Shown here piece after piece: positions 10,847 to 37,438 of a stretch of 64,000 bases of DNA (positions are counted from its first letter, which is position 1; each line of letters begins with the position of its first letter). The position numbers and the translations under genes were made by a program. The DNA lies in IMG/VR virus record IMGVR_UViG_3300017917_003893, positions 32,001 through 96,000 of that record. One strand, written 5' to 3'. Origin of the DNA: a virus. The notes under the pieces were generated by a model. The model worked only from the letters and a program-made list of their open reading frames with translations. It ran no database searches and had not been told where the DNA came from.

Positions 10847-12982
10847 ATGGCATTTGCACCACAACAAGAGAGACAAATGGTCTTTACGACCAAGTTAGTA
10901 GATGAGGCAACTGATAAGATTAATGATGGTATTGTTATAAAACGATATCAAAATCCTTGGCTTAAAAGTGAAGTTGGTTTGAGAAGAGCTGGTGTTTCAT
11001 TTAGAATGTCGGCTGATGAACAACAAGAGTACGTTAGATGTGCTTTAGACGTTCATTACTTCGTAGAAAAATATTGCAAAGTAAAGAGAGAAGATGGTTC
11101 TGTTGGTTCTATTAAACTTAGAGATTACCAAAAGGAAATTCTGGATAATTTTGTTAATAATAGATTTAACATTCTAATGGCGTCCCGTCAGGTTGGTAAG
11201 ACAATATCATCTGCTATTTTCATGTTACATAAGATATTATTTGATAATGATAAGAATATAATGATTGTTGCTAACAAAGGTGATACCGCTGTTGAGATTG
11301 TAGATAAGATTAAGTCTATTTATACTTTACTACCTTTCTTTTTGAAGCCAGGTATTAAAACATGGAATCAAAAATCATTAACATTTGAAAACGGTTGTAG
11401 AATTAAAACATCTGCTAGAACAAAAACTCCAGCTATTGGTTTTACCATTGATGTTCTTTATCTTGATGAGTTCGCGCACATTCCTTCTAATATTATTGAG
11501 CCTTATTATACTGCGGCTTTTCCAACAACTGCGGCTGTTCAAAATTCAAAGATTATTATCACTTCCACTCCGAATGGTATGAACTTGTTTCATAGGCTTC
11601 TAACAGATGCTGAAAGACCTGAGGGTGATCCACTAAAGAACAACTATAAACCCATGAGAGTTTATTGGTATCAAGTTCCTGGTCGATTTGTTACTTACAT
11701 AAGACTTAATTCTCATAAAATGTATGAGCATGGTGTTACTAAAGAAGAAATATTTAATTTAGTTAATGATACTTGGGGTTCTCAGACTAAGGTCTTTATG
11801 GAATATAACATGGATTTACTCAAAGATGTTATTAATGTATTCAATAATGATTCTTGTACAGATGAAGATGTTAAAAAGATGACCTTTATAGATAATAAAG
11901 GATTTGAAGTCCCTATAATGGCTATAGCCGAAGTTACAACATGGAAAGAAGAGGCTATTAAAGATATTGGTGGTGAGGATGCTTTTAACCAAGAGTATGG
12001 TTTGAGATTTATTAACGCATCTAAGTCATTATTAAATGAGGCTATTATAGATGAATTATTAAAAGGTAAAAAGAACTATGTTTGGGAACAAATACCCGAA
12101 CTTGATAGAAGATTGAAGTTTAGTTATCAAGACTTGAAATGGGTAGATGATGACAATATATTTATACCTATAATGAGAAAAGATTATAAATTTGTTATAT
12201 CTGTCGATATATCTGAAGGTTTGGGTCAGGATTACTCTATCATAAATATATTTAAGATATCTGAAAAGCCAAAAGATTTAATAGAAATACAAAAGCCTTC
12301 ATATAAATCAATAGTTGACTTTTTTAGGCTTGAACAGGTTGGTATTTATAGAAACAACTACATATCTGTTAAACAATTGGCTGAGTTGCTTTATATGATT
12401 GTATTTGAATATCTAAATCCTGATAATTGTAAAGTTGTTGTTGAGTTAAATAACTATGGTAATACTCTATTTGCGGAATTACCACACGTTTTTGATGGAA
12501 ATAACAACTATGGATCTTCAGTATTTGTTAGATATAAACATAGAGCAGATGCAACTGAAGAAAAAGTAGGTCTTAAAGTAGGTGAAAATAAGAATCTAAT
12601 GGTTAAAGACTATCAAGACTTAATGCAGTCTAAAGGATTTATTATAACAAATGAAGATAATATTAGAGAAATTACAACATTTGTTAAACATACAACATCA
12701 GCAGGTAATACGAGATATGCGGCAGATGTCGGACATGATGATACTGTAATGACTATAGTTAACGCCACTACTGTTTTTGGTCGTCATGATTTTAGTGAAA
12801 TGGTTGAAGAATGGTCTTCTAAATTTGTTGATAAAGAATTTATGAACTATGTTCAAGAATCTCTTAGAAACATTGACTATGTTGAGGGTGTTGACTATGG
12901 TCAAGTTCTAAGAGTTCGTAGACAACAAATGAATAGAAATAAAGGTAAAAACTTAAATAGTGGTGGTTGGTTTAATAATTAA
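10847..12982 (+). CDS. gp17: Terminase large subunit
   Basis: LRDYQ, ASRQVGKT Walker A, LYLDEFAH Walker B, TSTPNG, nuclease VDISEGLGQDYS and GHDDTVM. Confidence 0.96.
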   Translation: MAFAPQQERQMVFTTKLVDEATDKINDGIVIKRYQNPWLKSEVGLRRAGVSFRMSADEQQEYVRCALDVHYFVEKYCKVKREDGSVGSIKLRDYQKEILDNFVNNRFNILMASRQVGKTISSAIFMLHKILFDNDKNIMIVANKGDTAVEIVDKIKSIYTLLPFFLKPGIKTWNQKSLTFENGCRIKTSARTKTPAIGFTIDVLYLDEFAHIPSNIIEPYYTAAFPTTAAVQNSKIIITSTPNGMNLFHRLLTDAERPEGDPLKNNYKPMRVYWYQVPGRFVTYIRLNSHKMYEHGVTKEEIFNLVNDTWGSQTKVFMEYNMDLLKDVINVFNNDSCTDEDVKKMTFIDNKGFEVPIMAIAEVTTWKEEAIKDIGGEDAFNQEYGLRFINASKSLLNEAIIDELLKGKKNYVWEQIPELDRRLKFSYQDLKWVDDDNIFIPIMRKDYKFVISVDISEGLGQDYSIINIFKISEKPKDLIEIQKPSYKSIVDFFRLEQVGIYRNNYISVKQLAELLYMIVFEYLNPDNCKVVVELNNYGNTLFAELPHVFDGNNNYGSSVFVRYKHRADATEEKVGLKVGENKNLMVKDYQDLMQSKGFIITNEDNIREITTFVKHTTSAGNTRYAADVGHDDTVMTIVNATTVFGRHDFSEMVEEWSSKFVDKEFMNYVQESLRNIDYVEGVDYGQVLRVRRQQMNRNKGKNLNSGGWFNN

Positions 12983-13263
12983 CCATTTGCTTCCATAGTA
13001 GCACTTAGACCAGCACTTCTTAGTTTGTCTTTCATTGTTGAAATAGTATCTAAATCACCATATTTTACATCACATTTTCCGCTAAAATGTACAATATGAG
13101 CACACTGAGTAGCTTGTTCTTCTTCGTGTTTACAGATTTTCATCAAACATGTTATTACCCAATCAAAAGTATTATGATCGTCATTGTGTAGAACAAGTTT
13201 GTATGGTTTAGATAGTATTTCTTCTACTTTTGAAGATGTTTTCTTTTTAGTAATTGTTGCCAT
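12979..13263 (-). CDS. clpS: ATP-dependent Clp protease adaptor ClpS
   Basis: LVLHNDDHNTFDWV...QCAHIVHFSGKC signature. Confidence 0.9.
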   Translation of the reverse strand: MATITKKKTSSKVEEILSKPYKLVLHNDDHNTFDWVITCLMKICKHEEEQATQCAHIVHFSGKCDVKYGDLDTISTMKDKLRSAGLSATMEANG

Positions 13264-13288
13264 ATAATAATATTATATATTTTTATTT

Positions 13289-13807
13289 TTAATATGTTGA
13301 TTCTGTTTTGTTGATAACATCAATAACTTTAACACTTACATGATGTTCAGCTGCCCATTCCTTAAATCTTACAAGATGCTCATGTCTATCATCATACATG
13401 ACAAATTCGTCTACTCCAAGCTCTTCAATTTTTTCTTCAAATAACTTAGTTTTAAAGTTATAAGTATCACCACCCCAGTTTAGATGGATTTCATCAAATG
13501 ATAGATTGTGTTGATTTAAAATTTTCATCACGTTTTCAAGCATACCTTCTTTTTTTCTAAGTCTTCCGGTTGCTAAAATAACGTAGTTTTCTGGATCAGA
13601 AACAGCTTCTAAATACTTTTTATAAACCCATTGATTTAGTGGTATGTAGAATATATCAGGATCGATACTTTCAGAGCGACCCCACCAGCCATTATAAGGC
13701 CAATCTGTACCAGTTTTTTCCTTCCATATTAGTTCGCCTTCCTCTGGTTTAGGTGTGTGACAAAGAGTGTCATCAAAGTCAAATGAAATAAGTCGCTTAT
13801 AAGCCAT
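13289..13807 (-). CDS. HAD-superfamily phosphatase (RNA-repair-type)
   Basis: FDFDDTL, LATGR, MYDDR; TATCTTTG element at 13832-13839 (-). Confidence 0.75.
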   Translation of the reverse strand: MAYKRLISFDFDDTLCHTPKPEEGELIWKEKTGTDWPYNGWWGRSESIDPDIFYIPLNQWVYKKYLEAVSDPENYVILATGRLRKKEGMLENVMKILNQHNLSFDEIHLNWGGDTYNFKTKLFEEKIEELGVDEFVMYDDRHEHLVRFKEWAAEHHVSVKVIDVINKTESTY

Positions 13808-13908
13808 ATATAGTTTTTTCTTTTTATTTTACAAAGATATATATAAATTTTCGAAAATAAAAGGGTCAGATTATAAAATAATATATAATTACAAAAATTA
13901 TAAGTTTT

Positions 13909-14325
13909 ATGAAATTAGACACTAAATCTATCTTAATTTTAGCTTTGCTCGGACTATCTTTATTTTTTGGACTAAAATGGTTTTGGAGTGGAGATAGCGC
14001 ATCAAAAGAAAGAGTTAAACAACTTGAACAGGAATTCAAACAATTGGAATCTCAAAAAAAAGTAGTCGATTTGGAAATAATAGCATGGAAAGCTAAGTCT
14101 GATAGCCTAAGGTTGTTAGATGCTAAGTTACAAAAAGAGATTGAGAATCAAGAAATGTTAACTAGAAAGGCTGAACAAGAAGCTAAAAATTCAAGATCTA
14201 ACTTAGAAAAAATGAAAAAAGAACTAGCAGAGACTAGACAAAAAATAGATGAAATTAAAAGTAATCCGCCTAATAGAACAGGAGATGCTCTTTTAGAATC
14301 ATTAAAAAATAAAACAAAAAATTAA
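13909..14325 (+). CDS. Membrane-anchored coiled-coil protein
   Basis: N-terminal hydrophobic helix then heptad-rich region. Confidence 0.6.
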   Translation: MKLDTKSILILALLGLSLFFGLKWFWSGDSASKERVKQLEQEFKQLESQKKVVDLEIIAWKAKSDSLRLLDAKLQKEIENQEMLTRKAEQEAKNSRSNLEKMKKELAETRQKIDEIKSNPPNRTGDALLESLKNKTKN

Positions 14326-36533: not shown

Positions 36534-36988
36534 TGAAACTTAAAAAATTTAACTTATTTCAAGAAAGAGAAGGATTTGATGACATCTATGATTATGATGA
36601 TTATGGTGATGGTGATTATGGTGATGAATTTTCAACTGATGATAAAGAGTATGATCCAAATGAAGATGAAGACTCTGATGATATGGAGCACCTTTGTTAT
36701 TTACTTAGACAGATGATGTACAATTCGGGAATTGATGATGTTTCTGTAGAAAGTAGAGGACTAGATATATCTATTTCTGTTCAATTTAATAGAAAAGAAC
36801 AACTTAAAGATATAGTTAAAACTTTTGGTGTTATTAAAAAGATTAAGAGAGATATACTTGCTCAGTATGAAGACTCTTATGAGATTTGGGAAACAAAAAA
36901 AGGTAGTCCAGTAATCACATTTGATTTTAATTATGATGATGGTAATACTGAAAAATCATCTGATGGTGATGGTGATTATCCTTGGTAA
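36533..36988 (+). CDS. Acidic hypothetical protein
   Basis: MKLKKFNLFQE leader; TAATG coupling to upstream ORF. Confidence 0.6.
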   Translation: MKLKKFNLFQEREGFDDIYDYDDYGDGDYGDEFSTDDKEYDPNEDEDSDDMEHLCYLLRQMMYNSGIDDVSVESRGLDISISVQFNRKEQLKDIVKTFGVIKKIKRDILAQYEDSYEIWETKKGSPVITFDFNYDDGNTEKSSDGDGDYPW

Positions 36989-37007
36989 TTAATTTTTTTC
37001 TAAACTT

Positions 37008-37039
37008 TTTGCTATTTTAAGATATTATATATACATTTG
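37008..37039 (+). promoter_or_regulatory. Bacteroidota-type promoter of tmRNA with overlapping TATATATA
   Basis: TTTG 37008-37011, 20 nt spacer, TACATTTG 37032-37039. Confidence 0.75.
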
Positions 37040-37058
37040 TAGTATAATTAACACACTT

Positions 37059-37438
37059 GGGGATGTTTTAGAATTGATTTGCGGGATGGTGGTGATTATG
37101 CAGGTATCGGCTGGTTAAGTATCCGATTAATAAATTAAGTGACGAATTTGTAAACGGCAACGTTAATGAAGTAGCAAGCAAAGAAGATTTAGTATTTGCT
37201 CTACAAAACAACATGCTCTTGGTAGAAGAGCCAGCAACTGTCTAACAACAGTTACTGTTCAAAAAATTCTCCAACCTGTCTCACACAGGAATAAAAGGGT
37301 GAAATGGTTTTTTGTTACTTATTAGAGTTTTTCAAAAAAAGTAAATATTTCGTAAGTTTAGAAAAAGTTACTATGCCTGTGAATGAATAATTATTAACAA
37401 CCGAAAAAGACACCAGGGGCAGTACCTGGTCATCTCCA
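37059..37438 (+). ncRNA. ssrA: tmRNA
   Basis: 5' GGGGATG pairs with 3' CATCTCC-A with G3:U wobble; T-arm ACCAGG-GGCAGTA-CCTGGT; internal frame 37156-37245; about 380 nt intergenic; followed by terminator. Confidence 0.88.

Follow-up and report, generated by a model that had tools for sequence, protein, structure and literature searches.

The locus and its phage

The stretch of DNA considered here (the window) is 64,000 nucleotides long and corresponds to bases 32001-96000 of a virus fragment of 143,336 bases in IMG/VR (IMGVR_UViG_3300017917_003893), which is estimated to be 25% complete. Among its genes for the phage head lie a divergent transfer-messenger RNA (tmRNA) and the genes for three proteins: a ClpS homologue, RNase R and a stand-alone NFACT-R protein. 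The subject of this analysis is what these four features are, and whether they form one system.

12979-13263, minus strand: ClpS homologue, 94 amino acids (PF02617, E 4e-20, 71.7 against 23 bits), convergent with the large terminase gene and overlapping its end
28266-30143, minus strand: RNase R, 625 amino acids, domain architecture CSD1-CSD2-RNB-S1 (TIGR02063, 653 bits against a cut-off of 598)
34703-35092, plus strand: stand-alone NFACT-R protein, 129 amino acids, isoelectric point (pI) 9.5 (PF05670, E 9e-17)
37059-37438, plus strand: divergent one-piece tmRNA, 380 nt including the discriminator A; CCA not encoded

All four had been named in an initial annotation of the window, and all four were borne out: the proteins by the family matches listed (for RNase R also by its domain architecture), and the tmRNA by covariation in 13 copies together with the coding signature of its tag frame, as described below.

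The major capsid protein encoded in the window is 72-73% identical to those of LR745206 (634 kb) and LR756502 (642 kb), both “uncultured phage” genomes, 54% identical to those of LR756504 and LR756501, and about 30% identical to those of Lak phages. By its sequence, the source phage is a member of the Mahaphage clade of Al-Shayeb et al. 2020, for which the predicted hosts are Bacteroidetes (PMC7162821).

A divergent tmRNA

Homologues of the RNA occur at 17 megaphage loci (LR745206, LR756502 and 15 IMG/VR contigs), all of which were confirmed by profile search, and the 13 non-redundant full-length copies were aligned (alignment A2). From this alignment RNAalifold predicts 78 base pairs, 22 of them with compensatory changes. 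In a curated structure of 64 pairs, 96.8% of the cells are paired across the 13 copies, compared with 34-44% when the partners are slid; 18 pairs show double-sided changes, compared with 1-6 in the slid controls, and none of 500 shuffles reached the curated structure in any measure. The parts of the RNA and its expression signals, all on the plus strand, are as follows.

37032-37039: promoter -7 box of the Bacteroidota type, TACATTTG (TAnnTTTG), with 19 nt between it and the mature 5′ end
37059-37065: 5′ strand of the acceptor stem, GGGGAUG, pairing with 37431-37437 (CAUCUCC)
37106-37127: P3 hairpin AUCGG/CCGAU, at the position of pseudoknot 1 (PK1), directly after the 5′ strand of P2
37156-37245: tag reading frame, with resume codon GGC after UAAAC, 29 codons, and stop codon UAA at 37243-37245
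37275-37302: H-type pseudoknot (PK2-like), stems S1 CCUGU/ACAGG and S2 UCAC/GUGA
37412-37430: T-arm, 6-bp stem and 7-nt loop GGCAGUA
37443-37470: intrinsic terminator, a 9-bp stem and a T-run, 5 nt after the discriminator base

The overall plan is that of the standard one-piece tmRNA (RF00023). The acceptor stem has 7 bp plus the discriminator A; its columns (1-7 with 387-393) are 100% paired, the pair 5:68 varies between AU, CG, GC and GU, and the alanine identity pair G3:U70 is invariant. P2, which links the tRNA-like and mRNA-like domains, is a long helix enclosing the central domain (columns 20-47 with 331-363; 22 pairs, 97-100% paired, four of them with double-sided changes), and the P3 hairpin at the PK1 position is invariant and 100% paired. 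All 13 copies have the downstream pseudoknot, in which the S1 stem covaries (AGUCAG/CUGAUU, AGCUG/CAGUU), and the T-arm, in which three stem pairs have double-sided changes, is stacked on the acceptor stem. Further covarying hairpins are present besides this one H-type pseudoknot. No second stem was found for PK1; because the RNA is AT-rich, an automated scan for covarying helices gave too much noise for PK1 stem 2, PK3 or PK4 to be assigned. The RNA differs from the standard form in its unencoded CCA, its T stem of 6 bp and its T-loop, which is GGCAGUA, GGCGGUA or GGCAGUG in all copies and never the canonical UUCRANY; the loop GGCAGUA matches the Rfam consensus for mitochondrial tmRNA.

As in standard tmRNAs, the tag frame has no in-frame start codon, has a Gly/Asp resume codon with UA at -5/-4, and ends in helix 5: in 13 of 13 copies the stop codon is within a covarying hairpin, or at its top, at the helix-5 position (here 37236-37241/37248-37253). 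The resume codon was assigned because of the homologous context in the tmRNAs of LR756500 and LR756504; the context is UAAAC/GGC here versus UAAAU/GGC in the tmRNA that ARAGORN calls in LR756500. The predicted tag is (A)GNVNEVASKEDLVFALQNNMLLVEEPATV. Across the copies the frame runs for 27-29 codons after the conserved UAAAC and ends in UAA or UAG; neither of the other two frames is open in every copy. Synonymous changes make up 29% of the differing codons in the tag frame, versus 7% and 13% in the other two frames, and the indels within it are of 3 and 6 nt, those elsewhere being mostly of 1, 2 or 4 nt. The sequence TAnnTTTG is the -7 consensus of Bacteroides promoters, and at 9 of 16 distinct loci such a box is found 25-33 nt before the 5′ end, against a background of 2.9% per 45-nt window.

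Standard tools do not accept this RNA. At default settings ARAGORN calls neither the tmRNA in the window nor the loci in LR745206 and LR756502; on relaxing the settings a call is obtained only at -ps50, and is wrongly labelled as permuted. With Rfam at the gathering threshold (including RF00023) there is no tmRNA match in the window, and RF00023 gives only tRNA-sized matches on the fragment itself, LR745206 and LR756502. At an E-value threshold there is just a partial match of 27.5 bits between the 3′ end of the RNA and the mitochondrial tmRNA model. The alpha_tmRNA model (RF01849) gives an insignificant 8.6 bits on the T-arm, which does not bear out an “alphaproteobacterial T-loop”.

Rejection by ARAGORN and RF00023 could be taken to mean that the stretch is no working tmRNA, but what remains of a host ssrA gene, as a degenerate copy or at an attachment site, or else a small protein-coding gene. 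The fold of the single sequence, which is no better than that of shuffles (z = -1.1), would agree with this, although it is uninformative. That explanation is extremely improbable and close to refuted: the RNA is full length, with compensatory changes in all major helices across the 13 copies; its promoter and terminator are conserved; it is the sole tmRNA candidate in genomes that retain SmpB; and the frame lacks an in-frame start codon and is disrupted by indels upstream. By comparative analysis, 37059-37438 is confirmed as a genuine tmRNA, though both curated detectors reject it.

SmpB and the tmRNAs of other megaphages

The initial annotation had seen no smpB in the window. This is correct, and there is none in the whole 143-kb fragment either; a wider search finds SmpB in the complete or near-complete close relatives LR745206, LR756502, G002 (97% complete) and G003 (95% complete), with E about 1e-50 to 1e-53 and the canonical GKK..DKR tail. 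Thus, as with standard tmRNAs, a dedicated SmpB is encoded in the same genomes. In LR745206, smpB is 128 kb downstream of the tmRNA, and the syntenic position here is beyond the end of the fragment. RF00023 detects no other tmRNA in these four genomes. All four also encode a nucleotidyltransferase of the CCA-adding type, which fits the unencoded CCA of the tmRNA.

SmpB is encoded by every complete genome except LR756500 (462 kb), which has the most canonical megaphage tmRNA, yet no SmpB was found in it. The more distant megaphages of the same capsid clade have tmRNAs that RF00023 recognises (95.5 bits for LR756500, 65.2 for LR756504, 47.3 for Lak-B1 and 21 for LR756501) and that share the resume context UAAAU/G(G/A)C. 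The tag of LR756504 begins with DNVN, similar to the GNVN of the present tmRNA, and long tags are also found in LR756504 and LR756501 (24 and 34 codons). These tmRNAs differ from the one described here in being sited away from the capsid gene, in having tags that end in MAA, VAA or VLA (GNNAEMRMAA in LR756500, ...RMAA in Lak-B1, ...MAVAA in LR756504) and, in the case of Lak-B1, in having a canonical T-loop. Because the distant relatives have recognisable tmRNAs with tags ending in this way, the form found in the close subclade is a derived variant. Neither the A2 profile (nhmmer), run on the capsid-flanking loci of the distant megaphages, nor BLAST of the RNA against their genomes found a homologue.

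ARAGORN misses the tmRNAs of LR756504 and Lak-B1, despite their RF00023 scores of 65 and 47 bits; counts of megaphage tmRNAs based on ARAGORN are therefore underestimates. The general report of tmRNA in huge phages (Al-Shayeb et al. 2020, PMC7162821) relied on ARAGORN for its assignments. A literature search on phage-encoded tmRNA as a topic found no paper.

The C-termini of the predicted tags are PATV, PAMV, LATV, LAVA, PAVA, LVVA or LVIA across the copies. They never end in LAA or MAA, whereas the distant megaphages keep canonical ends. Perhaps the tmRNA is mainly a device for switching tags or for competition: ribosomes would be freed, but with a tag unread by host ClpXP or with the host tmRNA outcompeted, so that truncated products would be spared or sent to another protease. 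In keeping with such a role, ClpS blocks the degradation of SsrA-tagged proteins by ClpAP. The length of the tag also counts in its favour, being about three times the commonest length of 10 amino acids, and a phage form consisting of the tRNA-like domain alone has been reported to inhibit host tmRNA (PMC11915505). However, a long tag can still be a degron, and hydrophobic ends such as VVA may still be recognised. In mycoplasmas, long tags are read by Lon. On balance, tag switching as the main role is rather unlikely.

RNase R and ClpS

The alignment of the phage RNase R with its B. subtilis counterpart (779 residues) covers residues 73-707 of the latter, and the best 80 cellular relatives of the phage enzyme are all from Bacteroidota (46-50% identity). 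The Pedobacter orthologue has 709 amino acids, the additional 80 or so being at the N-terminus only. From the span of the alignment and the Bacteroidota relatives it follows that the phage copy is a Bacteroidota RNase R without the helix-turn-helix region.

In E. coli ClpS, the N-degron pocket comprises N34, D35, D36 and H66, with Met40 as gatekeeper. The segments HNDDH../VHFSGK of the phage protein align with VNDDY../VHYQGK of the E. coli protein, so that the N-D-D and His pocket residues are kept; the gatekeeper is replaced by Phe. No Clp_N domain was found in the phages that carry ClpS. A two-ring, ClpC-like Hsp100 ATPase of about 710 amino acids, with a UVR-motif linker and no Clp_N, is encoded by G002 (644-2776 of the excerpt, plus strand), LR745206, LR756502 and G003, and the number of ClpP-family genes in these genomes is zero to three (none in G003). 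This ATPase begins after the N-domain on which ClpS docks; therefore, a host partner for the phage ClpS is likelier than a phage one. ClpS itself is found in 196 of 201 sampled Bacteroidota. A literature search on phage ClpS and the N-degron found nothing on phage ClpS.

A stand-alone NFACT-R protein

In sequence, the NFACT-R protein is nearest to the bacterial RqcH domain (residues 455-552 of B. subtilis RqcH, E 5e-18, about 38% identity), not to CCDC25 (E 8e-9). Its AlphaFold model (pLDDT 74.5, residues 1-15 disordered) matches the folds of both the NFACT-R domain of RqcH (TMq 0.65-0.69) and CCDC25 (TMq 0.66-0.70). The NFACT-N, HhH and coiled-coil/M domains of RqcH are absent from it. According to the initial annotation, the phage touches both routes of ribosome rescue. 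The part concerning trans-translation stands, given the tmRNA, the SmpB of the relatives and an equivalog RNase R. The part concerning ribosome quality control (RQC) does not: the NFACT-N/RqcH half (PF05833) is absent from 12 of 12 related phage records, and recruitment of tRNA-Ala and Ala-tailing are therefore not possible. RqcH is present in 153 of the 201 sampled Bacteroidota, and NFACT-R in none of the five genomes nearest by RNase R.

There are also eukaryotic stand-alone proteins with this fold. According to a preprint, the solo NFACT-R protein Jlp2 of yeast frees peptides from peptidyl-tRNA in ribosomal complexes; H44 is required for this and H52 is dispensable. The preprint raises the question of whether NFACT-R domains bearing the histidine are a class of release factors (bioRxiv 10.1101/2025.09.04.673968). 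The phage protein shares the stand-alone fold of Jlp2 and CCDC25 (PDB 7EOE; TMq about 0.7, root-mean-square deviation about 3 A) and, with Jlp2, the motif D-x-W-x-H followed by a second His eight residues on: His54 (DIWMH) and His62 (PGSH) have the same spacing as H44 and H52. His54 is retained in 120 of 120 NFACT-R homologues and is invariant in alignment A3. The phage protein differs from Jlp2 and CCDC25 in its 129 amino acids with no C-terminal coiled-coil extension, and in its N-terminus. By analogy, the solo NFACT-R protein could release peptides from split 50S subunits, i.e., act on the substrate of RQC by other chemistry.

The N-terminus in question, MIKNFKLFNEG (residues 1-11), is a capsid-targeting-like label that is conserved in the NFACT-R orthologues. 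A label of the form M-[KR]-x-[LI]-[KR]-x-[FY]-[NE]-[ES] is found on otherwise unrelated small proteins, in 12 of the 160 open reading frames of the fragment compared with 3 of 740 internal-Met controls. It is also on the two reading frames that follow the NFACT-R gene; ClpS and RNase R are without it. One labelled protein, of 468 amino acids (35127-36533, plus strand), weakly resembles PepT-like M20 peptidases over a short segment (residues 186-243), scoring well below the cut-off.

Labelled reading frames in the window: 14896, 15575, 16680 (minus strand), 17768 (minus strand), 25488, 34703, 36533, 58121 and 63527 (minus strand)

The shared label looks like a capsid-targeting or prohead-protease signal, and presumably resembles the capsid-targeting peptide of T4. 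The T4 internal proteins IPI-III are a parallel: small, encoded among head genes and otherwise unrelated, they have a short N-terminal peptide in common. By analogy, the phage protein may be cleaved and packaged. It may be, then, that the solo NFACT-R protein has no role in rescue and is a basic, nucleic-acid-binding internal head protein, packaged via its label. Its gene is directly 3′ of the capsid gene; the label is common to 11 other reading frames and is disordered in the model; the pI is 9.5; and the fold matches that of CCDC25 as solved with double-stranded DNA. The internal head proteins of T-even phages are diverse and share just a capsid-targeting sequence (PMC3012670). Yet an invariant Jlp2-type His and motif in every homologue exceeds what general nucleic-acid binding needs, and the nearest sequence relative is a domain that acts on 50S subunits. 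In addition, packaging and a ribosomal target are compatible with each other. A role confined to the head is thus a real possibility, but clearly not the likelier one.

The surrounding head genes

The region from 10.8 to 39 kb of the window is devoted to head morphogenesis, with genes for a terminase, a gp25-like protein, an AAA+ protein, a portal and a capsid protein.

10847-12982: large terminase
13289-13807, minus strand: HAD phosphatase of the “Swiss Army Knife RNA repair” type (PF10307 HAD_SAK_1, E 3.6e-9, 37 bits, cut-off 25.6)
26063-27781: portal
32950-34623, plus strand: T4 gp23-type major capsid protein (PF07068, E 9e-29), with the NFACT-R gene directly 3′

The phosphatase gene is immediately upstream of the ClpS gene and on the same strand. 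Also among the head genes are a glutamine-synthetase-like gene (22388-23476, minus strand) and a gene for a TnsA-like endonuclease (24185-24712, minus strand). A gene for a NADAR-domain protein (37457-38023, plus strand; PF08719, E 1e-25), with weak similarity to a NADAR anti-phage family, starts inside the terminator region of the tmRNA, and next after it is a gene for a Dam-type N6-adenine methyltransferase (38024-38980, plus strand).

One toolkit or separate inserts

Twelve related phage records were surveyed for the distribution of the four features. All eight records of the close subclade have NFACT-R and the four distant genomes all lack it; ClpS is present in 7 of the 12 records, and RNase R in 6 of the 12. 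RNase R is absent from the 95%-complete G003 and is 160 kb from the tmRNA in LR756502. LR756504 lacks NFACT-R while having ClpS, RNase R, tmRNA and SmpB, and Lak-B1 has tmRNA and SmpB only. Their arrangement within the window shows no operon structure: the four genes do not all share a strand, and the terminase, portal and capsid genes are interleaved with them. Thus, the four features are separate inserts that were gained and lost independently, rather than an operon, a co-inherited unit or one fixed toolkit. Co-occurrence in related phages, which the initial annotation proposed as a check, holds for tmRNA and SmpB, the only two that behave as a clade-wide pair; RNase R, ClpS and NFACT-R vary independently.

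The initial annotation had proposed that the four genes are a coordinated toolkit for rescue and proteolysis, which sustains translation when host abortive-infection nucleases cut mRNA or tRNA. The four are indeed intact and together in four complete or near-complete close relatives, except for RNase R in G003; the group of genomes also carries the GGQ-only half of a release factor, the ClpC-like ATPase, ClpP and the CCA-adding enzyme; and the “RNA repair” phosphatase adjoins ClpS. As a rationale for the set of genes, a defence against abortive infection is plausible. However, structural genes lie between the four, their gains and losses are separate as described, the phage Hsp100 is without the N-domain on which ClpS docks, and no link to any defence system was found. 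A single coupled toolkit was not borne out and is unlikely.

The GGQ-half protein has 138 amino acids and corresponds to positions 201-335 of RF1, a class-I release factor. It is encoded in LR745206 at about 48.1 kb (minus strand, 362-778 of the excerpt) and also in LR756502, LR756504 and LR756501, not in the window. It scores below the ArfB and PrfH cut-offs, and is a possible codon-independent peptidyl-tRNA hydrolase.

Interpretation

Taken as a whole, the window is probably the head region of a Mahaphage into which four accessory features were inserted separately, with the divergent tmRNA as the core. The tmRNA would be transcribed from its own promoter and trimmed at both ends, CCA would be added by the nucleotidyltransferase, and the G3:U70 pair would allow charging with alanine. 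Together with phage SmpB, encoded off the end of the fragment, it most likely enters ribosomes that have run to the 3′ end of a broken mRNA and stalled there. On resuming at GGC, translation would append a phage-specific tag of about 30 residues, ending in ATV. The Bacteroidota-derived RNase R plausibly clears the mRNA fragments that are released. The most likely role of the basic solo NFACT-R protein is to bind nucleic acid at or close to large ribosomal subunits, and it may also free peptides from peptidyl-tRNA held on the 50S subunit. For ClpS, redirection of a ClpA/ClpC-ClpP protease of the host is most likely. The four may therefore be seen as parallel investments in translation and protein quality control, rather than as one coupled system.

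Several points weigh against this account. The T-loop of the tmRNA is non-canonical and neither ARAGORN nor RF00023 accepts the RNA, so that the account has to assume that it works with SmpB, EF-Tu and the ribosome; and the predicted tag is without a terminal Ala-Ala. The N-terminal region of RNase R is missing, as is the basic C-terminal tail, which in E. coli RNase R is tied to non-stop decay, although the Bacteroidota relatives are likewise tail-less. The equivalence of His54 and Jlp2 H44 is one of motif and spacing. Finally, the close relatives are closely related to one another (capsid 72-73% identical), and co-occurrence within the subclade therefore weighs little either way.

A bolder possibility is a private rescue circuit of two parts, in which an orthogonal tmRNA-SmpB pair with a tag unread by ClpX is joined by a histidine-type NFACT-R release factor, delivered in the capsid, that clears 50S-peptidyl-tRNA from the first minutes of infection. 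This is very unlikely; if it were true, no Jlp2-like enzyme would have been known outside eukaryotes before the phage NFACT-R protein.

That huge phages can encode tmRNA and SmpB has been reported before. In the largest phages known, SmpB is retained but standard tools report no tmRNA, a gap that the RNA described here fills; an entire lineage escapes the current tmRNA models. With its long tag lacking Ala-Ala, this RNA makes it possible to test whether a virus recycles ribosomes by trans-translation while altering the fate of the tagged product. The NFACT-R protein, with its 129 amino acids, is a compact version from a virus of prokaryotes, and bears on whether NFACT-R domains with the histidine form a general class of release factors.

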